Shown here piece after piece: positions 5,283-57,909 of a stretch of DNA of 64,000 bases. Numbering within the stretch: position 1 is the first letter of the stretch; every line of letters starts with the position of its first letter. The position numbers were made by a program, and so were the translations under genes. The stretch is taken from assembly GCA_038727515.1 (NCBI GenBank), contig JAVYVS010000001.1:320001-384000 (forward strand), read 5' to 3'. This stretch comes from Candidatus Methanomethylicia archaeon (GTDB lineage Archaea; Thermoproteota; Methanomethylicia; Culexarchaeales; Culexarchaeaceae). A model generated the notes under the pieces. That model did no database searches. It was not told where the DNA came from and saw only the letters and a program-made list of their open reading frames with translations.

Positions 5283-5975
5283 TTATTTAGACTTCTTCTT
5301 TACATCCATGTATATCATTATACAGAGTATCACTATGAATACTGGTATCATGTAGTATGCTGGATAGGATAATAAATATTGCATTCTACCAGTAAATAAT
5401 GTCATCCTGCTGAGTACTGTTCCACCAAATGCACCACCAAATGTGAACATGAGTACATATCTACCAGCTTTAGCTATATATCCCATAGGTTTACGAATAA
5501 CACTTATATCTGTGAAGAAGAAGTATAGGAAAGATGATATAAAGCCTAAGACTATAATTAGATTGTCTATTGGAGTGTATGGTCCAGTGGTTAATGAAAT
5601 TACACTAGCTTTAATCTGTCTAACTATTTGAGCTTCAATAAGTGCTCTCACAGATACACCAGTACCAACACCAACCATCACAGCCATGGAATATCTACTA
5701 ATCCAAGCTTGCTTAACAGTAAATCTTGTGAAAAGCATTATTCCAAGTATTATTGGTATGATAAACCAGTAATTACCTGCAGAAATCCTAGATACACCCT
5801 GATCCAAAATATTCTTCACAGCAAAGGCAACACCATAACCAGCATAAAGACCAACAAAAGTATGTTCAGCAATTCTATACAATATATTTTCCCTATAAAG
5901 TAGACTGTAAATCATCAATGTTAATGCAGCAGCTATTAAACCTGAAATAAGCGAAGCCAATTCCGCAAACTCCAT
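5283..5975 (-). CDS. Four-gene membrane system copy 1, subunit D (multi-pass membrane protein)
   Basis: LYRENxxYRxAE and GRYxxxxxFGxxFG motifs shared with 30230-30895 and 52209-52985; start moved to ATG 5975 (TAATG overlap with upstream stop). Confidence 0.85.
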   Translation of the reverse strand: MEFAELASLISGLIAAALTLMIYSLLYRENILYRIAEHTFVGLYAGYGVAFAVKNILDQGVSRISAGNYWFIIPIILGIMLFTRFTVKQAWISRYSMAVMVGVGTGVSVRALIEAQIVRQIKASVISLTTGPYTPIDNLIIVLGFISSFLYFFFTDISVIRKPMGYIAKAGRYVLMFTFGGAFGGTVLSRMTLFTGRMQYLLSYPAYYMIPVFIVILCIMIYMDVKKKSK

Positions 5976-6781
5976 TATCTCACCCTCCTCCCACCTAACC
6001 AATACTGTAAATTACCAATCACAATCAATATGACAACAAATAAATGCGAAAGTGAAAGAGCATCAGAGGAAGCGCAAGCTTCTCCAGGGCTGGCAATTAA
6101 AACTTCGTATTCAGCTGCAGCTCTAATACCAGCCACCATACCAACCAATTGACCTGCACTAATATATGGCATATATCCAGGGGCATTCATACCCCAAGTC
6201 ATAATTGCCACTGGAACACCATATGGAGTATAGAATTGCCTTATGTAAGGTTCACAATAACCGGTAGCAATAACCAATGCTAGATCCTTAGCAGTCTTAA
6301 CATTCTTCATTAATGGTATTTGCTCTATGGGTGTACCATAAACATCTCTGGGTAGTGCTTTATGAATGTTCTCAGCTATAGCAGCCATAGCAGTTTCATA
6401 ACCAGTAACATAACCAAAATCAACATAATCAACACCATAAGTCTTCTTTTCCAATAAATGAGCAATAGCAGGCTTAATTCTAGTAGCAAAATTTGTTGGA
6501 CCTTCAGCTGTATATAGTGAAATAAGGATTATCTTAACATTTTTACTTAGTAGATGCTTTAGAACTGCAATATTTGAGGGGCCATGTTCAGGCCAACTTG
6601 CAGCTCCAACACCATACTCAAATAATACAACACTACCCGGAGGTAGCGATTCAATTTTATCATACAATGCCTTTACTGGAGCGGTTATTGGTAATGGTAA
6701 TCCTAGAGGTCTAAGTAATGGTGCACCGACTACAATGAATAATAGTAGATACATATACCTTGGGTCAATTTCTTTAACCAT
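5975..6781 (-). CDS. Four-gene membrane system copy 1, subunit C (TM - soluble domain - TM)
   Basis: YGVDYVDFGY and RAAAEYE motifs shared with the other two copies; start moved to ATG 6781 after GGAGGT SD. Confidence 0.85.
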   Translation of the reverse strand: MVKEIDPRYMYLLLFIVVGAPLLRPLGLPLPITAPVKALYDKIESLPPGSVVLFEYGVGAASWPEHGPSNIAVLKHLLSKNVKIILISLYTAEGPTNFATRIKPAIAHLLEKKTYGVDYVDFGYVTGYETAMAAIAENIHKALPRDVYGTPIEQIPLMKNVKTAKDLALVIATGYCEPYIRQFYTPYGVPVAIMTWGMNAPGYMPYISAGQLVGMVAGIRAAAEYEVLIASPGEACASSDALSLSHLFVVILIVIGNLQYWLGGRRVR

Positions 6782-6785
6782 GTTC

Positions 6786-7433
6786 TCAACCTCCACCTCC
6801 AGCTTTAAGCCAAGCACTCTCTCTACCACTAAATGTCCTAATTGCAAGAGCTAGAGCACCTATAGCTGCGCCAACCATTATAGCCCTTTGACCAGCTGTT
6901 ATTGGAACACCCATAGCCCATGCACCCAAGGTAACTATTCCAGGATGTATATAGCCACCTATAGGTGCATTATAGAGTATAACAATTATCCCAGCCACTA
7001 AGAATATAGTTGTCTCAAGATTTCTAGCTCTAAAAGCTCTATATGATGCAGAAGTTATGAAGAAAGCAAGTATAGAGTAGACTGTTGGATCTAATGCAGC
7101 TATTGTCGTCGTATAAAGCCATCTATAACTTGGATGCCCCGTTATTGGTGGAAGTAAACCTAATATTGCCATAAGATACATTAAGAAAAGTGTCCATGCA
7201 CTTAATGCTCTCCTAACAACATCTTTCTCCCTCATAACAACTCGTCCATGAACAATTGTTAAGTTTATAACACCCATAAACATTGCAAATGCTGAAAGAA
7301 TGATAATCCAAACTTGAAGATCTGAAACAGCACTATGTAAAACTGGGATATCGAAAAAGTAATCTGCAAATGCCATAATACCTAGAATTGCAGTTAGGAA
7401 GAGTGGTAATTCACGTCTACGAAGCCAAGACAT
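6786..7433 (-). CDS. Four-gene membrane system copy 1, subunit B (multi-pass membrane protein)
   Basis: YRAFRARN motif; MSWLRRRELPL start matches MSWVRRREIPL of copy 2. Confidence 0.85.
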   Translation of the reverse strand: MSWLRRRELPLFLTAILGIMAFADYFFDIPVLHSAVSDLQVWIIILSAFAMFMGVINLTIVHGRVVMREKDVVRRALSAWTLFLMYLMAILGLLPPITGHPSYRWLYTTTIAALDPTVYSILAFFITSASYRAFRARNLETTIFLVAGIIVILYNAPIGGYIHPGIVTLGAWAMGVPITAGQRAIMVGAAIGALALAIRTFSGRESAWLKAGGGG

Positions 7434-7445
7434 GATACACACCCC

Positions 7446-8231
7446 CTATATACTAAGTAGATCCGTAAACCATTTCCCATACGCCGCTCCTAAAGTTGCT
7501 AAGATTGCTCCAATTATAGCTAACAATGATAGAAACATGCGGCCAAAATCCTCACCCACAATGGTTCCAATCTGCTCTGGATCCTTTGATAAATAGGCGC
7601 TTGCAGCAAAAATCTCTTCACCAATCAATGCATAATCACATACAGCTACGAAGAATGGTATATTATGATAGTTGGCGGTTCCACCAACTTGTACAGCTCC
7701 AGCTTTATATGCATTCTCTAATATCATTAAAGTTTCAGCATAGAATCCTCCAACCATAATAGTTCCAGCAACCTTCTGCCTATGTATTATACCCATGGCT
7801 GTAGTAGCCATTGGAAACTGACTATAAACAAATCTAACCATTTCTGGTCTAAATTTATCAGCTTTACCTTCAGCTTGAAAAGCTAATCTCACATTTTCCA
7901 AAGCCAATGGATAAACATCTTGAACTGCTATGAGCATAATAGGCTCTACATCATACCTTGCAGCTAAAGTAGTAGCATAATTAGTTACTGTAAGCCCAGC
8001 GAGAGTTTGAGCAGTTACACCTTCAATACCTGGAACCATAAGTAATGGTCTACCCATTTCAGCACATCTACCAATAACTTCTTCAATTGCATCAAGTGGA
8101 GCAATCTTACGCAACTTAAATATAGGCTTTCTCCTAGAAAGCCAAAGAGAAGTCAACATGAGAAAACACAGCACTAGAAATATCACAAATTGAGATATTC
8201 TTCCTTGAATTAACAAGAAAATCACTCTCAA
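7446..8231 (-). CDS. Four-gene membrane system copy 1, subunit A (DUF6754-like)
   Basis: LRKIAPLDAIEEVIGRCAEMGRP and PFFVAVCDYALIGEEIFAASAYLSKD; DUF6754 assignment from recalled family consensus. Confidence 0.8.
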   Translation of the reverse strand: MRVIFLLIQGRISQFVIFLVLCFLMLTSLWLSRRKPIFKLRKIAPLDAIEEVIGRCAEMGRPLLMVPGIEGVTAQTLAGLTVTNYATTLAARYDVEPIMLIAVQDVYPLALENVRLAFQAEGKADKFRPEMVRFVYSQFPMATTAMGIIHRQKVAGTIMVGGFYAETLMILENAYKAGAVQVGGTANYHNIPFFVAVCDYALIGEEIFAASAYLSKDPEQIGTIVGEDFGRMFLSLLAIIGAILATLGAAYGKWFTDLLSI

Positions 8232-8271
8232 TAATACTTAAATATACATAACAGATATATAAAAATAACGA

Positions 8272-9840
8272 GTGAAAATGGACTTAAAAAATAAATTAAT
8301 TGAGTTAGACGGAAAAATATTCGATTTTTATGTAAAAAATTTGAAAGAAATGCATGTACCATCCGCAGAAAACATAAACGCAATAATTGAAGAAATAGGA
8401 AAATTAAGGAAAGAAGTACTTGAAGTTAAGGAGTATATATGTGAAGATGATGTGGAAAATATTGTTTGGGCACAACATTTAATTGAATTGCTTGATTGCT
8501 GGGAGATTGGAATTAAAGAAAATACTAGACATCCAAGTAAATATCTCCGTGGAATAGGATTTAGAATCGCCAAAATACTTGAAGATGAAAAAAAGAGTAT
8601 AATTGAGAAAGCAGAAAAGATCAATGGATTATCAACGAAAATTTTAGAGATATTATCAGCAGTATATGAATTATGCCTAAAAGTTAGCGATGAAAAAATT
8701 ATAAGAACGATTAAATGTGCAAATGGATTAAAGAGGGATATAGATAGATACATTAAAATCATTGAAGAAATGATTTTAGAAAAAGAGGAGGAAAGAAAGG
8801 CAAAACAACAAATCATTGAAAAATTAAGTATTATGAGAAATTCAGTGGAAGAATTTGAATTAAAGGTTAAAGGGATCATTGGAGAGAAGAGGGAAATAGT
8901 TGATGAGATACCATATGAAACTCTAATGGAGAAACATTATAGGATACCAATAAAATGGGTATTAAGTTGGTATAAAGAAGAATTGGAGAATGCAAAGAAA
9001 AGATTCCATGAAATGGCAAGTAAATTTGATCCAAATAAAAATCCACTACAAGTATTAAGGGAAAAGATACATATTCCATATGAAAGTCCTGAAGAAATGT
9101 TTAAGGATATGGAGAGATTTCTAGAAATAGCTAAAGAAAATGCTAAAAAGTATTTAGATTTCCCAGATGAAGTTACATGTAAAGTTGTAGGTGTTAAAGA
9201 ATTTGAAAAAGATGTTTATCCAATGGGTCATGCTGGAGGACCAGACCCACTAGAAGGAGGATTAGAAAGCTATGTTGCATTAAACCAATACAATTATAAA
9301 GCATTTTCAAAGGGGTGGCTTATGATGATGGCAATACATGAAGCATATTATGGCCATAATATACATTCAATAAAGATAGGTTTAGCAAACATACCAAAAA
9401 CATTTAAGATAGGTAGTGGAATAGCAACACCAATATCTGAGGGGCTTGCACATAGAGGTGAAGAATTGCTACAACACATATATGGTGATGAAGCATTCCC
9501 ACTACTAGTAGCTTGGAGGAGGATGCAAACAACATTGAGAATATATATTGATATAGGTTTATTCTGTACGAAAACCATAACTCCGAATGATGCAGTTAAA
9601 TTGTATATGGATGTAATGGGATTTGATGAACAAACATCCAGAGGTTTAGTGGAATGGCATTTGGAGAATAGAGGGTATAATGTATGCTATTTCACAGGAT
9701 ATAAAATGATAGAAGAACTACGTAAATATACAAGTATGAGTGAGAAAGATTTTAGTAATACATTGTTCTCAGCTGGATTTATATCAATTAGTAATGCAAA
9801 AAGACTCCTTAAAATAAAGGATAAAATGCCATGGGAATAA
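8272..9840 (+). CDS. DUF885-family putative metallopeptidase
   Basis: HEAYYGH, SEGLAHRGE and C-terminal YFTGYKMIEELR match the DUF885 layout. Confidence 0.7.
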   Translation: MKMDLKNKLIELDGKIFDFYVKNLKEMHVPSAENINAIIEEIGKLRKEVLEVKEYICEDDVENIVWAQHLIELLDCWEIGIKENTRHPSKYLRGIGFRIAKILEDEKKSIIEKAEKINGLSTKILEILSAVYELCLKVSDEKIIRTIKCANGLKRDIDRYIKIIEEMILEKEEERKAKQQIIEKLSIMRNSVEEFELKVKGIIGEKREIVDEIPYETLMEKHYRIPIKWVLSWYKEELENAKKRFHEMASKFDPNKNPLQVLREKIHIPYESPEEMFKDMERFLEIAKENAKKYLDFPDEVTCKVVGVKEFEKDVYPMGHAGGPDPLEGGLESYVALNQYNYKAFSKGWLMMMAIHEAYYGHNIHSIKIGLANIPKTFKIGSGIATPISEGLAHRGEELLQHIYGDEAFPLLVAWRRMQTTLRIYIDIGLFCTKTITPNDAVKLYMDVMGFDEQTSRGLVEWHLENRGYNVCYFTGYKMIEELRKYTSMSEKDFSNTLFSAGFISISNAKRLLKIKDKMPWE

Positions 9841-30229: not shown

Positions 30230-30895
30230 TTAAGATTTTCTACGTTTATAAACGTCAAACACCACTAGCAATACTGCAACTATCAACAATACGTTTTGAG
30301 GATATTTTGCCAAAAATGCTGCACGTTCAATGGTGAAAATCTGATTAGCATATAATGTTGCACCAAAAGTAGAGCCAAAAGCTAACATCATACTCCACCT
30401 ACCAATCCTAGCTAAACCACCAATCCAACCCTTATGTTCAATGGTAAATGTAAAGTAACTCACTGTAGCAATACAAGCAATTGTAGCAATAATATGATTA
30501 ATCAAATCTATGGTAGACAACCCTGAAAATTTAACACCTAAACCCTCTATTTGCCCTATAATCATAACTGGAATAGCTCTACTCACAGCATAACCAGAAC
30601 CTGCACCAGCAATAGCAGCCATAGCCCATCTACTCAAAAACAAATACTTCTTTGAGTAAATAGTGTATAGAAGTAAACCTAAGATTGCAGGTATTATAAG
30701 CCAAAACTTACCTTGAATTAAAGGTTGTAGCCAAATGCGATTCAAAGTGGATAGAGAAATGTACAATGTATAACCCATGCCAAAACCGACCATAAGAACT
30801 TCAGCAATCCTATAAAATACGTTCTCCCTATATAGTAGACTCCAAGCCATCAAAGTTAATGCACCAACAATAAGTGGAGTAACAAATTCACTCAT
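30230..30895 (-). CDS. Four-gene membrane system copy 2, subunit D
   Basis: SLLYRENVFYRIAE, IGRWSMMLAFGSTFG. Confidence 0.85.
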   Translation of the reverse strand: MSEFVTPLIVGALTLMAWSLLYRENVFYRIAEVLMVGFGMGYTLYISLSTLNRIWLQPLIQGKFWLIIPAILGLLLYTIYSKKYLFLSRWAMAAIAGAGSGYAVSRAIPVMIIGQIEGLGVKFSGLSTIDLINHIIATIACIATVSYFTFTIEHKGWIGGLARIGRWSMMLAFGSTFGATLYANQIFTIERAAFLAKYPQNVLLIVAVLLVVFDVYKRRKS

Positions 30896-30897
30896 AT

Positions 30898-31707
30898 TCA
30901 CCTACCCCCCAACTTCTTCTTTAAATAACCATAATTTGCCACAATAGTCAATATAACACCCAAAGAAACTGTTAGAGATGCAGCATCCATAAAAGCTGTG
31001 GCTTCACCCTTAATACCCATGAGCTGTTCATATTCAGCAGCACCCCTACTACCCCTAATAAGAGAATACAATTGACCAGTATTTATATAGGGCATAACCT
31101 GTGGAACAATATCTGAGGATAAAACGCCAATAATGGTTTCAACTTTTCCGGAAAACTGCCTCATCCATGGATCCACCCAAGTTAGACAAGCGAAAATGTA
31201 CATCTTAAAATCACTAATCGTATTAAAAGCATTCATTATGGGCATATTAACAGTGGGATTACCGTAGTAATCTCTTTCAAACATTTTAGGATTAGATACA
31301 AAAGCAGCCATACCAGTTTCAAAACCTGGAATATAACCTAAAACAACGTAATCAGTACCATAAACAGCACCCTTCAAATCAATTTCTCCAAGAATTCTAT
31401 GAGCAATAGCAGGACCATTGGGATCGAAAGCTATCATAACAATTCTAGCGCGTTTAATGAATAAATGCTGCATAATATCCCTCATAGCTATTCCAAGCTC
31501 AACCCATTCACCTGGAGTAAAATCAAAACTTATCAAGACGAGATCGCCAGGTTTCAAGGATTCAATTGCATAATAAGTCTTATTGGTTAAATAGAATTGT
31601 GGCAATGGTATACCTATAGGTCTAAAAGCTGGTAGAAATGTTAAGAATAATACCACAAGGAAAATTATCTGCCTATCATATTTAGACATAAAGGTGTGCC
31701 AATCCAT
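30898..31707 (-). CDS. Four-gene membrane system copy 2, subunit C
   Basis: YGTDYVVLGY, RGAAEYE; start moved to ATG 31707 after GGGGTGA SD. Confidence 0.85.
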   Translation of the reverse strand: MDWHTFMSKYDRQIIFLVVLFLTFLPAFRPIGIPLPQFYLTNKTYYAIESLKPGDLVLISFDFTPGEWVELGIAMRDIMQHLFIKRARIVMIAFDPNGPAIAHRILGEIDLKGAVYGTDYVVLGYIPGFETGMAAFVSNPKMFERDYYGNPTVNMPIMNAFNTISDFKMYIFACLTWVDPWMRQFSGKVETIIGVLSSDIVPQVMPYINTGQLYSLIRGSRGAAEYEQLMGIKGEATAFMDAASLTVSLGVILTIVANYGYLKKKLGGR

Positions 31708-31711
31708 CCCA

Positions 31712-32326
31712 TCACCCCGTATACGCCCGTTCATAACCCAATAAAACACGAATAGCAATTGCAATAGTCCCCAATGCAACCCCAATTATAACACCTCTAC
31801 TAGCACCCATATTTGGAACGTCAAGTATCCAATTAGCCACAGTTATAGTCTGTGGTATAACAACTTCAAATACTGGTGCATACATCATCATTAAGAATAC
31901 AGCTGCAAATGCAAAGAATGCAGCATCAAGATTCCTAATTCTAAATGCTCGGTATATAGCGGTATAATTGTAGAAGGCTGTAAAACATATTATTGCAATA
32001 GAAAGTGGTGTGTAAATTTCATTATACAAATAATCTGCAAAAGACGGTGCTAGATAATATGATAGAAATAACATTAACATTGCAATGAAGAAAATTATGC
32101 TTACAAAATATCCCTTACGCCTTTGCATGATAATCTTACCATGATACATACATAATGCTATGAGACCTGTACCCAGAGCAAAGGTAGACATTATTAGAAC
32201 CCAATTGGAAAGCTCAGTATTTGCTTCAGCTAGGAATGGTATCTTCAAGTAGTATTGTAGTAGAGAAATGAAAAATGTTACTGCAAATATGATTAATGGG
32301 ATTTCTCTACGTCTAACCCAACTCAA
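31712..32326 (-). CDS. Four-gene membrane system copy 2, subunit B
   Basis: YRAFRIRNLDAA, SRGVIIGVALG. Confidence 0.85.
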   Translation of the reverse strand: MSWVRRREIPLIIFAVTFFISLLQYYLKIPFLAEANTELSNWVLIMSTFALGTGLIALCMYHGKIIMQRRKGYFVSIIFFIAMLMLFLSYYLAPSFADYLYNEIYTPLSIAIICFTAFYNYTAIYRAFRIRNLDAAFFAFAAVFLMMMYAPVFEVVIPQTITVANWILDVPNMGASRGVIIGVALGTIAIAIRVLLGYERAYTG

Positions 32327-32339
32327 CGATTACACCCCC

Positions 32340-33098
32340 TTATATCCTAAAAATCTTTGAAAGATCAAATCCCAATCCACCAAGTATGAAAGCTAAAATT
32401 GAAAGTACAATAACTATGGCTCTAACTATATCTGAAGCTATGACACTACCAAGTTGTGGAAGATCTTTTGAAACATATGCACCAGCAACAAGAAGTTCTT
32501 CAGCAATTAAACCATAATCACACAATGAAACAACATATGGTACTTGATACAGCCTTCCGGTTCCACCAACCTGTATTGCACCAGCTCTCGCACCAGCTTC
32601 AGCCAAAATGATAGTCTCCCAATATAAAGCACCTAAAAGGAAGTTTGCAGCAGGCTTCTCACGCTCATAAATACCCATAACAGTAGCCATCAAAGCCGTT
32701 TGAGTGGGAATATACAAAATCTGCTCAGGTTTATAATTCTCTCTAAAAGCAGCTTTAAACATATCTTCAGCTATGGGAACTATAGCTGGAACTGCCGCTA
32801 GATACGTTAATGAAGCTTTATATTCCGCAGCCTTTCTAGCAACATAATTCAATAATGACAAACCAGCCAGTGTTTGAGGCATAACATCACCACTCAAACC
32901 ACCAACACCAGTAGAATAGAATATTGGCCTACCAGTTTCCACAGCTCTACCAATAGCCTCATCAATTGCATCAAGACCTGGAATACGCCTAATCTTTGGA
33001 GGCTTACCACGCTTAACAGTATACCTCATAAAGAAGATGTATAAAGCAAAAGAGGTAATCAATAGAGCAAAACTAAAATATAGTCCCTCTTTAATCAT
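32340..33098 (-). CDS. Four-gene membrane system copy 2, subunit A (DUF6754-like)
   Basis: IRRIPGLDAIDEAIGRAVETGRP, CDYGLIAEELLVAGAYVSKD. Confidence 0.8.
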   Translation of the reverse strand: MIKEGLYFSFALLITSFALYIFFMRYTVKRGKPPKIRRIPGLDAIDEAIGRAVETGRPIFYSTGVGGLSGDVMPQTLAGLSLLNYVARKAAEYKASLTYLAAVPAIVPIAEDMFKAAFRENYKPEQILYIPTQTALMATVMGIYEREKPAANFLLGALYWETIILAEAGARAGAIQVGGTGRLYQVPYVVSLCDYGLIAEELLVAGAYVSKDLPQLGSVIASDIVRAIVIVLSILAFILGGLGFDLSKIFRI

Positions 33099-49280: not shown

Positions 49281-51098
49281 TTGAATCTAAGTGAAGAAAC
49301 AAAGCAGTTAAGGAATTCCCTAAATCATTTAGTGAGAATATTTGAAAATAGAATAAGGGATATCAGTAGAATATCGTATTATGGAGAATTCATAAGGGAA
49401 TATAGAAGTGAAGGAATATATGAAAAGTTTAAGGAATTCTTTGGAGAAGGAGAATTTAAAATTCTGGGGATAGATGGCTCACTCACACAAGAAAGAAGAA
49501 TTGAAATGTTAATATTCTATGTTTGCGCAGTTGGATTTTATGGTAAACTTACCATTAAAAATTCAGAGGTAAAAATAGATGTTAGTAGAGCAGCTGAAGA
49601 AGCAACAGTAAATCTATCAACAAGCATACCATTATGGCTTGAAGATATATCAAATATAGATCCAAACTTTGAATACATCTTAAACGATTTTGAATTAATA
49701 AAAACAATAGATAGCATACCATACGCGCTAATGACAATGAGTGAACTAAAATTGGCATATGACCAATTAAATTCAGAAGAAGTCAAAGTAGTAGTATTAG
49801 ATAGAATGCTATCTGGAACTTATGGTCCAGCTGCAAGAGACTTTAGAAATTTAGTAAAGAGAAATAAATCGGTGATATGTAAAATAGAAACCCCATATGG
49901 CAATCCAACAATGCTAGACATAAATTTAGCTGGATACATAGGTCCAGGAGGAATTTACATACCATGTAGAGATCCATACCTACCATATTTTGCAATAAAA
50001 AGATTAATTGAAAAAATGCAAAAGGGGGAAGAGAAATTTAAAAAGAGAGATCTACCAAGGATTTTAGATTTAAATGAAAGTTTAACTAAAGAAGCTCTAA
50101 AAGACATATTGAAACTAAATGTTAAGTATAATGGTATCCTATTAAATGATGAAGGAGAATATATAACGTTAAATAAAGATGTAATGAATTATTGGAATAG
50201 AGTATGGTATGCTACAGAAAAACTATTAAACAAGATATATAACTCTAGAGAGAAGCATCCTCTAACAATAGATGAAGAGGAATGGATGACGACACTAGAC
50301 TTAAACACAATAAACCTATACATACTATACTCTATAATAGATAAAGCAGTAAAAGATGGAAAACTATTAATTGGAATAGTTAAGGATACCAATTCAACAG
50401 ATCTCATGAGATCGATGATACCATACATATTAACCAATAAAAATGAGTTAATGCTACCACCAAGATTTAGAAGTGATAAAGCGCTTCTCTCACTTATAAG
50501 CGCTATAAATTATAGAAGTATAAAAGTTCCATGGAGAACAATAGAATATGATTCATTCATGGCAACCATAATACAAGAGGAATTAGATGAAGCATTAGAA
50601 GCAGCATTTAAAGCTGCAAGAGAAATTATTGGAAGAGAGCAATTCACGTTAAAGGGATACTTCCAATTAAGATCATTAAGAGAAGATCCATCGATAAGAA
50701 GCAATATATTTGCATATGATAGACCAATATACCCAAAATATGATTACAAAATGATTAAAAAAGTGGAATGCATACAATTTGGAGAGAAGATATCTGCTGA
50801 ACCAATAATAGAATTGAAAAATGATGAAAACATTATTGGAGATATAATACTACATATATTATACAATTCTGATAATCCAAATGTACTTGAAGAAATGGGC
50901 CATAACCATCTACTATTTCTAGCAGATAAAATGGCTAAGATTATGAGTAGAAATGCTTCAAAAATAATATCTGGATTAACAAGTCTAGATCTTATGACGA
51001 CAACAAAGAAGTATAAGGCATATTTCATAGCTAGAAGATTTAGAGATATGAGGAGTGAAATAGAACATTTAAGAGAAATGAAAGCAAAACAAATCTAA
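49281..51098 (+). CDS. NurA-like nuclease, unusually long
   Basis: GIDGS, MSE, VLDRML, IGIVKD, GHNHLLFLADKMAK follow NurA RNase-H-fold motif order. Confidence 0.75.
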   Translation: MNLSEETKQLRNSLNHLVRIFENRIRDISRISYYGEFIREYRSEGIYEKFKEFFGEGEFKILGIDGSLTQERRIEMLIFYVCAVGFYGKLTIKNSEVKIDVSRAAEEATVNLSTSIPLWLEDISNIDPNFEYILNDFELIKTIDSIPYALMTMSELKLAYDQLNSEEVKVVVLDRMLSGTYGPAARDFRNLVKRNKSVICKIETPYGNPTMLDINLAGYIGPGGIYIPCRDPYLPYFAIKRLIEKMQKGEEKFKKRDLPRILDLNESLTKEALKDILKLNVKYNGILLNDEGEYITLNKDVMNYWNRVWYATEKLLNKIYNSREKHPLTIDEEEWMTTLDLNTINLYILYSIIDKAVKDGKLLIGIVKDTNSTDLMRSMIPYILTNKNELMLPPRFRSDKALLSLISAINYRSIKVPWRTIEYDSFMATIIQEELDEALEAAFKAAREIIGREQFTLKGYFQLRSLREDPSIRSNIFAYDRPIYPKYDYKMIKKVECIQFGEKISAEPIIELKNDENIIGDIILHILYNSDNPNVLEEMGHNHLLFLADKMAKIMSRNASKIISGLTSLDLMTTTKKYKAYFIARRFRDMRSEIEHLREMKAKQI

Positions 51099-51105
51099 GA
51101 AGAAA

Positions 51106-52176
51106 ATGCTATACATACTACATACCACAGGACAATGTAATTTAAACTGTAAATATTGTGGTGGAAGTTTTCCACAAAGATTAGTTCCATGGAGAATAGA
51201 ATATGAAATTGAAGATTTACAAAGATTTATGGAGGGAGACCCAAATCCAATAATAGCATTCTATGGCGGAGAACCACTATTAAACAGTAAATTTATAATG
51301 GAAGTAATGGATGAAATACCAAATGCAAAATATGTTATACAAACAAATGCCACATTAATAGAGAATTTAAAATACGAATACTGGTTGAAATTTGATGCAA
51401 TACTACTTTCCATAGATGGAAGAAGAGAAATTACAGATTATTATAGGGGTAAGGGAGTATATGATAAAGTTATTGAAGCAGGGAGGAAACTTAGAGAAAT
51501 AGGTTATAAAAAGGATTTAATAGCTAGGATGACAGTCACAGAGAAATCGAAAATATATGTAGAAGTAAAACACCTAATATCAACAGGTATTTTTGACCAT
51601 ATACATTGGCAATTAAATGTTATTTGGAGTAGAAAATGGAGGAATTTCAGAGATTGGAGTAAAAACTATGTATATGGAGTGAAAATGTTAATTAAAGAAT
51701 GGTTGAAAAATGCTGAGGAAGGAAGAATAATAGGCATAGCACCAATACTTGGAATATTAAAAACAGCATTACAAGATTTAAAGATTGAAAGTCCACCCTG
51801 CGGTTCAGGTAGAACTTCAATAAGCATATCCAGTAATGGTAAAATATATGCATGCCCAATAGCAGTAGATGCAAAATGGGCTGAAATTGGAGACTTATGG
51901 AACAATAATTGGAAAAATGTAAAAAGGATATCCATAGGTGAACCATGCATAAAATGTGAATACTACAATTATTGTGGTGGAAGATGCCTATATGCATACA
52001 TGGAGAAATTATGGGGTGAAAGGGGATTCAAAGAAATATGCAATATAACAAAGAAAACAATAAAAGAAGTTTTAAAGGTAAAAGAAAAAGTTTTTAAAAA
52101 TATAAGATATGGAGAGATAAATCTATACGATATAATTTACCCAAAATTTAATAATACAATTGAGATAATACCATAA
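51106..52176 (+). CDS. Radical SAM/SPASM protein (AF0577/TIGR04084-like putative peptide-modifying family)
   Basis: CNLNCKYCGGS, FYGGEPL, SPASM cysteines (CGSG, ACP, CxxCxxxxxCGGRC), C-terminal NTIEIIP. Confidence 0.85.
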   Translation: MLYILHTTGQCNLNCKYCGGSFPQRLVPWRIEYEIEDLQRFMEGDPNPIIAFYGGEPLLNSKFIMEVMDEIPNAKYVIQTNATLIENLKYEYWLKFDAILLSIDGRREITDYYRGKGVYDKVIEAGRKLREIGYKKDLIARMTVTEKSKIYVEVKHLISTGIFDHIHWQLNVIWSRKWRNFRDWSKNYVYGVKMLIKEWLKNAEEGRIIGIAPILGILKTALQDLKIESPPCGSGRTSISISSNGKIYACPIAVDAKWAEIGDLWNNNWKNVKRISIGEPCIKCEYYNYCGGRCLYAYMEKLWGERGFKEICNITKKTIKEVLKVKEKVFKNIRYGEINLYDIIYPKFNNTIEIIP

Positions 52177-52208: not shown

Positions 52209-52985
52209 TTAATTAGATGCTGGAATTGTTGCTGGTTTCATAGCAGCCTTTTTCTTCTTATAATCAGTGTATATAATGTATAATAAGCCTAAGCAACATA
52301 TTGCAGTCATTATTGGAGCGTAAACACCAGATTCAGGGGTACCTATACCACTAGCCTTCCATGGGAAATATCTACTACCAAGCAATAATTGGAACCTTTG
52401 TATAAGTAGAGATTCTCTACCCATAACTGTATTAGCGAAGGACGCACCTAAAGCGGCTAAAATTACATATCTACCAGCTTTATTTAAATTCTTTAATGGA
52501 CCTTTAAGCTCAGTGGTAAATATGAAGAAGAATATTGCTAGTACAGCACCAAAGAATAATACAAATCTATTAAACGTGGTGAAAGGATCGGCAGCAAACA
52601 ATGATGTACCTATAGCAGCATTTATTTGACCAACGAAATCTGATCTAATAGTACCCCTTAAACCAGTTCCAAGACCATAACCAATACCAATAGCTATAGG
52701 TATCCTGTATAACCAGAAATACTTTCTTGAGAAGAAGAAGTAATAGCATAATCCTATAAGAGCCCATGGAAATACGAAATCCCATCTACCACGATAAACA
52801 ACTGGGTTATATAGGTAATTCTGGAAGAACCATAAGTCGTATGAAACACCATAACCAACACTTATACCAACGTATAAGTGCTCTACAAATCTAAATAGTG
52901 GGTTTTCCCTATATAAGTATGATAGACAACCAAAGCTTACGAATACAGCAGTCCATACGAAAATTAGTTCTTGTAATGTCACCAT
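52209..52985 (-). CDS. Four-gene membrane system copy 3, subunit D
   Basis: SYLYRENPLFRFVEH, AGRYVILAALGASFA; start moved to ATG 52985. Confidence 0.85.
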   Translation of the reverse strand: MVTLQELIFVWTAVFVSFGCLSYLYRENPLFRFVEHLYVGISVGYGVSYDLWFFQNYLYNPVVYRGRWDFVFPWALIGLCYYFFFSRKYFWLYRIPIAIGIGYGLGTGLRGTIRSDFVGQINAAIGTSLFAADPFTTFNRFVLFFGAVLAIFFFIFTTELKGPLKNLNKAGRYVILAALGASFANTVMGRESLLIQRFQLLLGSRYFPWKASGIGTPESGVYAPIMTAICCLGLLYIIYTDYKKKKAAMKPATIPASN

Positions 52986-52989
52986 ACTT

Positions 52990-53877
52990 TCACCCACCTC
53001 CACGAGACTTTTTAGCAAAATAACTTAGATTGCCAAGTATAATACCTACAACAAGTAGATAATGTACTGCTGATTGAGCATTCATCGCTTGTGGTGCACC
53101 AGTTAACCCAAATTCACCAAGTAAAGTTTCATATTCAGCCGCACCCCTAAGACTATTAAGAATACCAATATAACCAATTTCACCCTTCTTACCAGCCTCA
53201 TAGTATGGTAAATACCCGGGAACTGAAACCCCAGGAAGACATGCGGCGAATACTAATGCAGGTGGAAGTTTCTTGGTAGCCCAATATTGTAGGTATGTTT
53301 CAGGTCCAGGGGAACCAGCAGCAAAAGATACAACTAGAGAAGCATACTTTATGCCATCAAACTTTTGTACTAGCTCCAAATTTTCTATGGGATTACCATA
53401 ATAATCCTTAGTCATAGCTTGGGTAATGGTGTCGAAAATTCTTATTATTAGAGCTGTAGTTGCTAGATAACCTAAGTTCACCCAATGCTTTCCATACTCT
53501 TTAGTAATAATGCGAGTTGGATTTTCAGGATCTAAACCAGTATGATCAATACTCTTCCATATTTCATCAGCCATTATCGGACCATCACTCCACATACCCA
53601 AAACAATAATATACAAGGGTCTCTTAACCACATGTCTAAATACAGCAATAGCTTGTGGATGTATCTCTGCGTGAGCACCACCATAATCAAATGATAAAAC
53701 AACTAACGATCCTGCTGGAAGCTTTTCAATATAATTATATAGGCCAAGGGTGTATTCAGTTATACTTAATGGTGATGGAGCAACAATAGCCACGGGTATT
53801 GCTATGCATATCGCGGTTAATAGGTATAGCCATCTAGGATCTAAAGCTTCAAGAAATTCATACCAAGGTCTACTCAA
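52990..53877 (-). CDS. Four-gene membrane system copy 3, subunit C
   Basis: LDPRWLYLL, YGKHWVNLGY, RGAAEYE; probable TTG start 53877 after GGAGGTGA. Confidence 0.85.
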   Translation of the reverse strand: MSRPWYEFLEALDPRWLYLLTAICIAIPVAIVAPSPLSITEYTLGLYNYIEKLPAGSLVVLSFDYGGAHAEIHPQAIAVFRHVVKRPLYIIVLGMWSDGPIMADEIWKSIDHTGLDPENPTRIITKEYGKHWVNLGYLATTALIIRIFDTITQAMTKDYYGNPIENLELVQKFDGIKYASLVVSFAAGSPGPETYLQYWATKKLPPALVFAACLPGVSVPGYLPYYEAGKKGEIGYIGILNSLRGAAEYETLLGEFGLTGAPQAMNAQSAVHYLLVVGIILGNLSYFAKKSRGGG

Positions 53878-53878
53878 T

Positions 53879-54595
53879 CTACTCACCTCCAGCAAGTGTT
53901 GGTCTACGCTCATAAGCAAATATGACTCTAACACCATAAGCAATACTGCCAATAGCCGTACATAAAACAACGCCACGCATAGCAGAAGTATTTATGTAAT
54001 CCATTATCCAAGCTCTAATAGGTTCAAAGAATGGGAATAATGCTGAATTTATTGGTGCATTACCCATTAAGACTAAAAATCCAGTTATTAATAATATTGC
54101 TGCATCAATATTCCTAGCTCTAAAAGCTCTATAACCAGCTGAAATTATGAAAAATCCAAGTAATGCAAACATCATACTACTAGCAACACTACTCACACAC
54201 CAATATAGATAGTTCCAGACGACTGCCGTAGAATCATAAATCCATTTAGGTACCACAGCACCCTTTGGATCTAATGCATATCTACCACCAAGAGTGCTTA
54301 TAATTGCCATGAATGGTATCATAATTAAGACTATAAGGCTAAATTGCCATGGACCACGTCTACGAGAAACATTCCTATAATGAATCCTAAATACATTTAT
54401 TGCACCAATACCAATAGCCATCGCACCCATAGCATTAAAGTAATCTAACATTGTAGTTTCAAGATAGCTGGATGTACTGAAAGTTCCAACTCTAATATCA
54501 ATGTACCACTCAAATACGTAAATTATCCCAAATACAAATGCTAATATTATTGGTATAGACCTTTTATAATCAAGTAATAGTGATTTAAATCCCAT
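53879..54595 (-). CDS. Four-gene membrane system copy 3, subunit B
   Basis: YRAFRARNIDAA, MRGVVLCTAIG. Confidence 0.85.
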   Translation of the reverse strand: MGFKSLLLDYKRSIPIILAFVFGIIYVFEWYIDIRVGTFSTSSYLETTMLDYFNAMGAMAIGIGAINVFRIHYRNVSRRRGPWQFSLIVLIMIPFMAIISTLGGRYALDPKGAVVPKWIYDSTAVVWNYLYWCVSSVASSMMFALLGFFIISAGYRAFRARNIDAAILLITGFLVLMGNAPINSALFPFFEPIRAWIMDYINTSAMRGVVLCTAIGSIAYGVRVIFAYERRPTLAGGE

Positions 54596-54605
54596 CTAGC
54601 TCACC

Positions 54606-55409
54606 TCACTTAGCCAATAAATCTAATATAAACCTACTTCCACTACATATAGCGATAATACCTATCAACAACATAACCAATGCTATATACCTCCCAATAT
54701 CATGAGCAAATAATACACCAATTATTTTTGGATCTCTAGTTATATATGCTGCAGCTGCATAAAGCTCTTCACCGATTAAAGCATAATCACATGCAGCAAC
54801 GAAGAATGGCATTTGAACAGTGGCTGTGGTTCCAGCAATCTGTATTGCACCAATATTATAGCCAGCTTCAGCAAGCTCTAAAGATTCAGCATAGAAATAG
54901 CCTAAGAAGAAGTTTGCTGCAGGCCTCTCCCTCTGGAATATTCCAAGAACACCTGAAGCAAATGCAAATTGCTCACTGGCAATAAACCTAACCATTTCAG
55001 GTTGATACATATCTGCTTTACCTTCAGCTGCATAAGCTTGTTTTACAATACCTTCAGCAGCCATATAAACAGTGTAATACCTATTGGCTACAATTATGGG
55101 GATACCATATCTAGCAGTCTTTCTGGCAACATCTCCAAGTATTGATAGAGCAGCTAAAGTGTTTAAATCACCTATACCATGCATACCTGGAGTAAAGAAT
55201 ACTGGTCTACCCATCTCTGTAGCTCTACCAATAGCTTCATCCACAGCTTCAACAGCAGGAATCTTTCTAACCCTAACTTTTTCCGGTCTACGTTTAGAAA
55301 ATTCTAGTGCAAAAATCGTTAAAGCCCCAAGAATCATCAACATTACGCCTTGTGCCATACGCCCAGATATAACCCTAAACTCTATTTGGGCTAAATCCAG
55401 CAGTATCAT
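54606..55409 (-). CDS. Four-gene membrane system copy 3, subunit A (DUF6754-like)
   Basis: VRKIPAVEAVDEAIGRATEMGRP, PFFVAACDYALIGEELYAAAAYITRD. Confidence 0.8.
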   Translation of the reverse strand: MILLDLAQIEFRVISGRMAQGVMLMILGALTIFALEFSKRRPEKVRVRKIPAVEAVDEAIGRATEMGRPVFFTPGMHGIGDLNTLAALSILGDVARKTARYGIPIIVANRYYTVYMAAEGIVKQAYAAEGKADMYQPEMVRFIASEQFAFASGVLGIFQRERPAANFFLGYFYAESLELAEAGYNIGAIQIAGTTATVQMPFFVAACDYALIGEELYAAAAYITRDPKIIGVLFAHDIGRYIALVMLLIGIIAICSGSRFILDLLAK

Positions 55410-55533: not shown

Positions 55534-55998
55534 TTAATTAAGTTTGTATAGTTTCCAGTATTCTACAACTCTACCGTCGCTTAGAAATTCTGGTCCTCCA
55601 ACCATTTTAGCTGTGTAACCTAAGCTTTTTAGTGCTGCAAACATGAGTGATGTGGATATATGTGCTGGAACTCTACCAAGTTTAATAAGTTTTTGAGCTC
55701 CATCAGCAATAGCTGGATTTAACATAATGTACTTCACAGTATCATTAGAAATTTTTTCAACACTTATATCTTCAACGTATCCTGAATCTTTAAGCCATTT
55801 AGCTAATGTAGATAAAACTTTAAATGGATCTTTATCCCTTAATTCTTCAATAAAATTCTTAGCTTCTTCAAAAACTATTTCACCACACTTCCAAACAATA
55901 CTCCAAGTATTTTCACCAATTAAATCGTATATGGCATAATATACGCCATATATCACTAGATCAAAGAATTTAGGATCTATACGAATTTTTCCAGTCAA
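55534..55998 (-). CDS. Hypothetical protein (possibly V4R/H-NOX-like small ligand-binding fold)
   Basis: Intact 154-aa ORF; fold is a guess from the helix-helix-strand pattern only. Confidence 0.5.
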   Translation of the reverse strand: MTGKIRIDPKFFDLVIYGVYYAIYDLIGENTWSIVWKCGEIVFEEAKNFIEELRDKDPFKVLSTLAKWLKDSGYVEDISVEKISNDTVKYIMLNPAIADGAQKLIKLGRVPAHISTSLMFAALKSLGYTAKMVGGPEFLSDGRVVEYWKLYKLN

Positions 55999-56850: not shown

Positions 56851-57909
56851 GTGGTTAAAATGGGAGGAATACTTTTTATTGGAACTGGAAGTGCAGGTGA
56901 AAGAATACTCTCAATTGCCTATGCAACATTCAAAAATTTAAGATCAAAAGAAAATTACTTTATAGCAGTAAATACTAGCAAGAAGGATCATGAAAGAGTA
57001 CAATCATATTTTGATGAAAGAGGGATAAAGGATCACTCAAACTTCCTATTTGAAACCATTGGAGAAGAAACTTTAAGTGGATATGGAGCTGGAAAAGATC
57101 CGAAGCTTGGTCAAAGTGCATATGAAGCCGATAAAGAAAAATTGCTAAAGAGATTGAAATCATTACATAAAAAGGAGAATTTCAAAATAGCAATACCGCT
57201 CTCAAGTTTAGGGGGTGGATGTGGAACAATGGTTGTAGGGGAATTAGCCAGTGATATAAAAAATGAAATTGGGATAAGGGTTATACCAATATGTACAATA
57301 CCATTTAGAAGGGAGGGAGATCTACTAATTGGAAATGCTCTACTTGGTTTAAGAAATCTATTGGATAAAGGTCTTAATCCACTGATATTTGATAATGAAT
57401 TAATGATGAGATTTAGTCAAACAGTGGGTGAAGGTGTAGATAGAGCAAACATTATAATTACATCATTAATATCAAGTTTAGTAGATCTCGTGGAATATGG
57501 AGGATTCTCAAATCCACCAATAGACATAATAGATTTAACAAGACTAGTAATACCACAATGCGGATTTTTCACAGTAGCATACTTAGATAATTTAAGGGAT
57601 TTCAAGAGGAAGTGGAAAGACTTATTTGAATTTAATAAATCACTGGTTTCACAACCAATAACGCAAACAAATTGTTTCATAATGTTTAAAGCGAGAAGTT
57701 TTCCACATGAAGTAGTTGAAGATGGGTTATCATATCTTAGAGTAAAGTATAATGCTAAAGAAATTATACCAACAACAATAGAAGATAAAAGTTTTGCAGG
57801 TTACACCATAGCAGCAATGATATGGGGAATGTCTATAGAGGGTATAAAACCACCATTAAAAACAAAGAGACCATTGGGAGAGGAAATAAGGAAGATGCTT
57901 AAAATATAA
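56851..57909 (+). CDS. Divergent FtsZ/CetZ/tubulin-superfamily GTPase
   Basis: IGTGSAG, AVNT, GYGAGKDP, LGGGCGT, TIPFRREG, FDNE, IDIIDL in FtsZ loop order. Confidence 0.8.
   Translation: MVKMGGILFIGTGSAGERILSIAYATFKNLRSKENYFIAVNTSKKDHERVQSYFDERGIKDHSNFLFETIGEETLSGYGAGKDPKLGQSAYEADKEKLLKRLKSLHKKENFKIAIPLSSLGGGCGTMVVGELASDIKNEIGIRVIPICTIPFRREGDLLIGNALLGLRNLLDKGLNPLIFDNELMMRFSQTVGEGVDRANIIITSLISSLVDLVEYGGFSNPPIDIIDLTRLVIPQCGFFTVAYLDNLRDFKRKWKDLFEFNKSLVSQPITQTNCFIMFKARSFPHEVVEDGLSYLRVKYNAKEIIPTTIEDKSFAGYTIAAMIWGMSIEGIKPPLKTKRPLGEEIRKMLKI

Follow-up and report, generated by a model that had tools for sequence, protein, structure and literature searches.

The window analysed here, 64,000 nucleotides from the genome of a Candidatus Methanomethylicia archaeon (contig JAVYVS010000001.1, positions 320,001 to 384,000), carries on its minus strand, at 5283-8231, four co-directional open reading frames (ORFs) that are designated A, B, C and D. 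We interpret these genes, tentatively, as one unit of a widespread four-subunit membrane complex that would form the substrate-specific part of a modular, probably ATP-coupled uptake system, an interpretation that may well hold and that we stop a little short of calling probable. A and C each comprise a soluble domain between two predicted transmembrane helices (TMs), and B and D are each predicted to have a core of six helices. The A+B and C+D halves appear as mirror images in topology, since the predicted orientations of domains and helices are opposite in both pairs. In sober terms, the prediction of a mirror architecture is well supported, and common descent of the two halves is unsupported.

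A conserved, multi-copy gene cassette

The gene structure of the cassette, its conservation and the co-occurrences reported below were observed directly. Three cassettes lie in the window (Table 1) and eight in the 1.59-Mb genome, invariably in the order A-B-C-D. Subunit A is a full-length member of the DUF6754 family (PF20539; E 3.8e-69, 233.1 bits against a cut-off of 27, profile positions 9-251 of 257), which has eight matches in the genome; neither TrkA_N nor any other Pfam family except DUF6754 matches A. B, C and D could be assigned to no family in Pfam or NCBIfam, a single 10-bit NCBIfam row for B/D being a chance match. Outside the DUF6754 label, the complex is without a characterised relative.

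Homologues, about 80-97 per subunit, were assembled from 80 loci of other genomes together with the eight local copies. The A-B-C-D order is intact in 71 of the 80 loci (Bacillota, Planctomycetota, Zixibacteria, Cloacimonadota, Ignavibacteria, Armatimonadota and Bathyarchaeia) and tandem cassettes are present in five. Relatives of A are found in Bacillota, Chloroflexota, Zixibacteria, Bathyarchaeota and others, with 13 DUF6754 genes in one 2.3-Mb Bacillota genome, and the C family has 2897 cluster representatives in a 50% identity library. A is the most conserved subunit, its mean pairwise identity being 42-43% as against 32-36% for B, C and D. In B, the sequence YRAFRARN is conserved behind TM4 (89 homologues).

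Two of the loci show unusual arrangements. At L044:7408-9295 a restriction-modification pair (N6/N4 DNA methylase and MjaI-type endonuclease) lies between B and C, splitting the operon and leaving the cassette otherwise intact. At L045:6808-8196, in place of B, C and D, A has behind it a tandem pair of Cys-rich paralogues that look secreted and contain a dockerin-like DxDxD stretch; this cassette appears to be disrupted or replaced.

A candidate uptake system and its putative ATPase

In the scheme that we infer for transport, subunit roles and ATP coupling, the variable outside domain of C would receive the substrate, B and D would together provide its path through the membrane, and the conserved inside domain of A would couple the complex to a shared, long GlmL/MutL-type actin-fold ATPase and its partner protein. 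All eight cassettes would share one such ATPase module, whose genes are present a single time, at another site in the genome. We arrive at this reading because the cassettes are many, A is conserved, there is one ATPase per genome, hydrolase genes and TonB receptors are neighbours, and ATP-binding cassette (ABC) importers number only two.

The cassette itself encodes no ATPase recognisable in Pfam or NCBIfam. Its commonest flanking family is PF13941 (GlmL/MutL, actin-fold, about 600-640 residues), whose gene is adjacent and on the cassette strand in 17 of the 80 loci. In the three loci inspected it is followed by a gene for a partner of about 370-450 residues, which in locus L011 has an RnfC_N-type barrel. 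Among 301 genomes sampled from the window's phylum, the seven with full-length DUF6754 are exactly the seven with full-length PF13941, and have one to eight cassettes and one ATPase each, and the two families are found together in all five bacterial genomes checked. In the host genome the single PF13941 ATPase gene (C1:553923-555782) and the gene for its partner are distant from every cassette and have a peptidase and a decarboxylase gene as neighbours.

Genes near the local cassettes encode GH4, a GH-like protein, DUF885, M20 and M28 peptidases, an amidohydrolase and a creatininase, and cassette copy 2 lies within a group of amidohydrolase and peptidase genes. TonB-dependent receptors (CarboxypepD_reg, Plug and barrel domains) are encoded in three related diderm loci, 1-1.5 kb downstream from where D starts (L033:9843-12602, L034:9999-12749 and L037:9908-12607). 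Set against the eight cassettes, just two loci for classical binding-protein-dependent ABC importers were found in the genome (with BPD_transp_1 permeases, at G000:C1:435454-437500 and 530461-532451).

These observations also bear on two other functions. The complex might be a self-contained secondary carrier or gated channel, with the RCK/KTN-like cytoplasmic domain of A as a ligand-sensing regulator and the link to the ATPase incidental. Such a function, which would suit a host ATPase gene that adjoins no cassette and a mirror topology of the kind common in carriers, is improbable in our judgement: the cassette co-occurs with a long PF13941 protein in every genome checked, the ATPase gene is its same-strand neighbour in the 17 loci mentioned, A lacks a TrkA_N match, and 8-13 diverged copies per small genome fit substrate-specific uptake better than ion gating. 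A preliminary description of this DNA had called the architecture typical of secondary carriers and channels, a view that the strict co-occurrence with a GlmL/MutL-type ATPase weakens.

Very improbable, in turn, is a role other than transport, in which a membrane-anchored enzyme, sensor or envelope-assembly complex would use its Rossmann-like domains to bind, on each side of the membrane, nucleotides or sugar donors. The very high conservation of A is indeed enzyme-like, and the domains do resemble halves of GT-B glycosyltransferases. However, many diverged copies per genome lie next to different hydrolase genes, TonB-dependent receptors are adjacent in the diderm loci, and there is no match to a glycosyltransferase family; moreover, the A and C domains are predicted on opposite faces of the membrane and therefore would not form a single GT-B cleft.

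Several points weigh against the uptake reading itself. The five bacterial genomes had been picked as cassette carriers, and the archaeal co-occurrence sample represents few independent lineages. GlmL-type proteins are otherwise tied to B12 mutases, so that the association with the ATPase could be metabolic. No nucleotide or phosphoryl-transfer motif was recognised in A, and the helix count and orientation of B and D are predictions from hydrophobicity, charge bias and natural fusions alone. Literature searches on DUF6754, PF20539 and PF13941 found no paper, and comparison of sequence profiles with PDB chains found no solved relative.

One further association concerns five related loci of the FCB group (Zixibacteria and Ignavibacteria: L042, L044, L045, L055 and L076; for example L044:3043-5886), where a gene of the phosphotransferase system (PTS) Enzyme I family lies directly upstream of A. 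In the two of these that were inspected, L044 and L045, a gene for a bifunctional phosphoglucose isomerase (PGI, SIS) stands between the Enzyme I gene and A. A PTS-like reading was dropped for the host genome, which has no Enzyme I.

Predicted membrane topology

Independent lines of evidence on topology come from charge bias, from long forms of A, from insertions in a B loop together with a B-C fusion, and from a seventh helix of D with its Lys-rich tail. Lysine plus arginine (K+R) counts in A are 4.68 for the 15 residues past TM1, compared with 1.32 for the N-terminal and 1.23 for the C-terminal tail (n=97). In C the pattern is reversed, with 4.61 for the N-terminal tail and 3.71 for the C-terminal tail of about nine residues, and 1.24 and 1.99 for the flanks of the domain (n=94). 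The six basic clusters that the preliminary description had quoted from the A and C copies are all present as written, and the bias extends throughout the family. B is rich in K+R in its N-terminal tail (2.8), loop 2-3 (3.6) and loop 4-5 (3.0) and poor in loops 1-2, 3-4 and 5-6 (1.1, 1.1 and 1.0, respectively); D is rich in loops 3-4 (2.84) and 5-6 (3.16) and poor in loop 4-5 (0.97).

Natural variants of the subunits are informative in the same respect. Long forms of A (P0159, P0212, P0238 and P0270) have a signal-peptide-like start and, ahead of TM1, an additional domain that measures about 90-190 residues. For B, a single-sequence search found no long forms before a profile search gave 42, of which 16 have FG-GAP/VCBS Pfam matches. 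In the four inspected (P0288, P0271, P0283 and P0309, containing FG-GAP/VCBS, WD40 and two other domains) the extra domain always occupies the TM3-TM4 loop. P0274 is a direct fusion of B and C that lacks an additional helix, and the C-terminal end of B and the N-terminal end of C should therefore lie on one side of the membrane. The topology model predicts that A could not be fused to B without an added helix; DUF6754 was absent from all matches of the search for long B forms, and no A-B fusion was seen there. In P0136, TM2 of C is followed by a strongly basic loop, a third helix and one more domain. The seventh helix and Lys-rich tail of D are present in six of the eight local copies and in only two of 75 from other genomes.

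Taken as a sequence-based prediction, an arrangement with the domain of A in the cytoplasm, that of C outside the cell, B with both ends inside and D with both ends of its core outside, each of the latter with six helices, is well supported. The placing of the A and C domains on opposite faces by the preliminary description is upheld at this level by K+R bias, natural fusions and insertions. Its proposal that A and C, and likewise B and D, are oppositely oriented gains similar support from K+R bias, the long A forms, the B insertions, the B-C fusion and TM7 of D.

Fold of the A and C domains

Fold, like topology, is a matter of prediction here. AlphaFold2 (AF2) models calculated from deep alignments have predicted local distance difference test (pLDDT) values of 93.6 for A and 96.6 for C and bear out the layout, proposed earlier, of a helix, an alpha/beta domain of about 200 residues and a second helix. 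The order of elements is identical in the two models: TM, a0, six beta-alpha units and a long TM, with a predicted six-stranded Rossmann-like domain in both proteins. A Foldseek search of the PDB gave no match at E <= 0.001 for either A or C. The best structural neighbours common to both are 1kjn_B and TrkA/KTN domains. The 1kjn chain, of 152 residues, is covered nearly completely by both, with 133 residues of A and 136 of C aligned, and A and C therefore have at least 117 equivalent positions in common. Judged through such common templates, the modelled domains of A and C are very probably similar in structure. No alpha/beta fold is commoner than the Rossmann-like fold, which is, for that reason, too widespread for a common fold to prove that A and C share an ancestor.

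Tests for common descent of the paired subunits

The preliminary description had treated A and C, and B and D, as paralogues. On this view an ancestral two-gene unit, encoding a two-helix protein with a domain and a six-helix protein, was duplicated in tandem with one copy inverted, and the product would be an inverted pseudo-symmetric complex, which is compatible with the uptake model. We consider this origin doubtful. It would account for the alternating gene order, for the like sizes (261 and 268 residues for A and C, 215 and 230 for B and D) and helix counts (two and two, six and six), for the identical order of secondary structure and the common structural neighbours of A and C, and for the predicted inversion of both pairs, as inversion of a whole unit demands. 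Weak, co-linear profile matches between A and C point the same way. Against it stand the prevalence of the Rossmann-like fold and the comparison with known inverted paralogue pairs. Those of the RnfA/RnfE, NqrD/NqrE and EmrE type have short loops only, whereas inversion here would also demand the export of a 200-residue domain. The profile comparisons described below also count, for the most part, against it.

Comparison of A with C by hhalign gave P values of 0.54 with three sequences each, 0.18 with eight, 0.066 with 97 and 94, and 0.025 with 112 and 149 (probability 2%). Over the comparisons as a whole, probabilities were 2-12%, none of them significant. The best deep alignment is co-linear (beta1-alpha1-beta2-alpha2-beta3), the N-terminal halves of the domains match with P 0.0023 and the whole domains with P 0.01, the latter at a z of only about 2. 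Since non-colinear segment pairs also gave P values down to 0.005, controls for the scores were built from block-shuffled profiles (40 runs) and reversed profiles. The N-terminal halves score 20.9 compared with 10.9 +/- 2.8 for the shuffles, one of the 40 reaching the real score, and shuffled controls match the real A/C and B/D scores in 1-6 of 40 runs.

An alignment of the C-terminal parts of A and C had earlier been drawn by eye. In its last part hhalign finds the same register, aligning A 214-244 with C 228-259, and the alignment does pair equivalent elements (beta5, alpha5, beta6, alpha6 and TM2). Its score is nevertheless at chance level: 15.7 as against 11.9 +/- 2.3 for block shuffles, three of 40 of which reach it. 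A six-by-six profile test of the beta-alpha units of A against those of C revealed no in-register preference (the diagonal ranks 158/720 among permutations), and its top cell, unit 6 of A with unit 3 of C, is out of register. Ranking the 1455 long ORFs of the genome with the A-domain profile left the C copies unenriched (p 0.58); ranking with the C-domain profile enriched the A copies mildly (p 0.007, best rank 38). With non-significant profile comparisons, no register signal and a mixed genome ranking, the paralogy of A and C is not substantiated.

The paralogy of B and D fares no better. Their hhalign P value was 0.49 and then, on deep profiles, 0.018 (probability 2.5%). The real score of 19.5 compares with 15.4 +/- 2.8 for shuffles, six of 40 of which reach it, and the reversed D profile scores 24.6 against B, above that of real D. 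By contrast, D contains an internal repeat, in which a first unit (Gly-rich TM2 plus TM3) matches a second (Gly-rich TM4 plus TM5) over 52 columns with a probability of 74% and P 2.8e-5; the score of 25.9 compares with 11.8 +/- 1.8 for shuffles, none of 40 reaching it. In hhalign comparisons no segment of B rose above background against the repeat units of D, which thus have no counterpart signal in B. The Arg-initiated, Gly-rich helix said to end both B and D is found in both sequences, and its resemblance is at background: the last helices score 12.0, within the range of unrelated segment pairs. Because D has three such helices, the likeness is not specific. A same-orientation or permuted relation of B and D was rejected after comparison of three hairpins from each, which gave nothing above background.

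The profile-profile comparison of A with C and B with D, put forward in the preliminary description as one means of checking its proposal, thus gives nothing significant. At the sequence level there is no reliable signal of an ancient duplication leading from A-B to C-D, and common descent is not supported.

A bolder form of the uptake reading would combine the two proposals, making the complex a primary-active importer of a new class, powered by a GlmL/MutL-type ATPase of the actin fold, in which A+B and C+D are ancient inverted duplicates with a docking domain inside and a receptor domain outside. We rate this as unlikely. We know of no precedent for solute transport energised by an actin-fold ATPase nor, as a topology inversion, for a complex of two mirror-image halves each with a large folded domain. 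If the uptake model itself is correct, a transporter class outside current classifications would import peptides, amides or sugars in mostly uncultured anaerobes and thermophiles, its carriers spanning Bathyarchaeia, Bacillota, Zixibacteria, Cloacimonadota, Planctomycetota and others. Reconstructions of metabolism in these organisms would in that case overlook their main importers, as illustrated here by eight cassettes and two ABC importers.

Gene structure and other features of the window

Within the cassette at 5283-8231, 12 nucleotides separate A from B and four separate B from C, and C and D overlap in TAATG; a GGAGG-like stretch precedes each junction. B is taken to start at the ATG at 7433, behind a GGGGGTG stretch, where the ORF list instead uses the GTG at 7442. 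The ATG of C follows four nucleotides past the stop of B, and that of D lies within the TAATG overlapping the stop of C, downstream of a GGAGG stretch. Coordinates are collected in Table 1.

Table 1. Positions of the cassette genes, their principal elements and the two further cassettes within the window.
Feature	Position	Strand	Remarks
Subunit A	7446..8231	-	261 aa as listed, translation perhaps starting a few codons further in; DUF6754; predicted topology: N-terminus out, TM1, cytoplasmic Rossmann-like domain, TM2, C-terminus out
Basic cluster SRRKPIFKLRK of A	8106..8138	-	Residues 32-42, right behind TM1; from sequence
Cytoplasmic Rossmann-like domain of A (predicted)	7584..8105	-	About residues 43-216; a0 then six beta-alpha units
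Subunit B	6786..7433	-	215 aa from ATG at 7433; six TM helices predicted, N-in, C-in
TM3-TM4 loop of B	7092..7151	-	Predicted outside; low K+R; site of large-domain insertions in longer relatives
Subunit C	5975..6781	-	268 aa from ATG at 6781; predicted topology: N-terminus in, TM1, extracellular Rossmann-like domain, TM2, basic C-terminal tail in
C-terminal tail GGRRVR of C	5978..5995	-	Behind TM2; from sequence
Subunit D	5283..5975	-	230 aa from ATG at 5975; six-TM core predicted N-out/C-out, plus seventh helix and Lys-rich tail
Internal repeat unit 1 of D	5709..5861	-	Gly-rich helix TM2, loop, TM3; hhalign
Internal repeat unit 2 of D	5505..5681	-	Gly-rich helix TM4, loop, TM5; hhalign
Cassette copy 2	30230..33098	-	A 32340-33098, B 31712-32326, C 30898-31710, D 30230-30901; tblastn
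Cassette copy 3	52209..55409	-	A 54606-55409, B 53879-54595, C 52990-53877, D 52209-52985; tblastn

About 40 nucleotides (8232-8271) separate the listed start of A at 8231 from a divergent DUF885 gene at 8272. Because this leaves very little room for two archaeal promoters, A may in fact begin further downstream, or leaderless transcripts may be involved. Beyond the window, a single in-frame TAA interrupts one A gene among the eight of the genome (G000:C1:633999-634742), with B, C and D beside it intact; this could be a recent pseudogene or reflect a sequencing error.

Cassette 3 is flanked by a 605-residue ORF (49281-51098, plus strand) and a 154-residue ORF (55534-55998, minus strand), both without a Pfam match, and a radical SAM protein is encoded after the former at 51106-52176. 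Close to the same cassette, at 56851-57909 on the plus strand, lies the gene for a 352-residue protein of the tubulin/FtsZ family (PF00091, E 6e-15), which may be a CetZ-like paralogue.

Comparison with known systems

The one existing family label, PF20539 (DUF6754), covers A only and is a catalogue entry without a function. Among proteins of known structure, the small archaeal Rossmann-like protein MT0777 (PDB code 1kjn), itself of unknown function, differs from A and C in being soluble, in its length of 152 residues and in its identity of 8-9%, with no detectable sequence relation. The KTN/RCK domains of Trk, Ktr and MthK differ too: RCK domains are soluble or C-terminal, whereas those of A and C are clamped between two membrane helices and have no sequence-family match. 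We know of no RCK domain outside the cell, where the domain of C is predicted to lie. From the type I periplasmic solute-binding proteins (ribose/sugar binding family) C differs in being single-lobed, without a hinge, anchored by a helix at each end and unrelated in sequence.

At the level of the whole system, group II energy-coupling factor (ECF) transporters and MsiK-type shared-ATPase ABC importers offer a parallel in combining many membrane units, eight in the present case, with one candidate energising module, and in lying, as the cassettes do, among catabolic genes. Unlike theirs, the candidate ATPase here has an actin/ASKHA fold (PF13941) rather than an ABC fold, and its coupling to the complex is our proposal; Pfam and NCBIfam searches of A-D gave no match to PF00005, PF00528, EcfT, an S component or any ECF family.

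For topology the nearest parallel is provided by RnfA/RnfE and NqrD/NqrE (PF02508). Like B and D, these are pairs of six-helix subunits of similar size and of opposite orientation, predicted in our case, within a multi-subunit membrane complex. Unlike B and D, the Rnf and Nqr partners are recognisably homologous to each other, and their complexes lack paired, domain-bearing two-helix subunits. B and D have no match to PF02508 at E values up to 1 in Pfam, and no conserved cysteine pair was seen in them. The cassette thus lacks the defining marks of both kinds of system, resembling ECF and shared-ATPase ABC systems in its logic and the inverted pairs of Rnf and Nqr in its topology.

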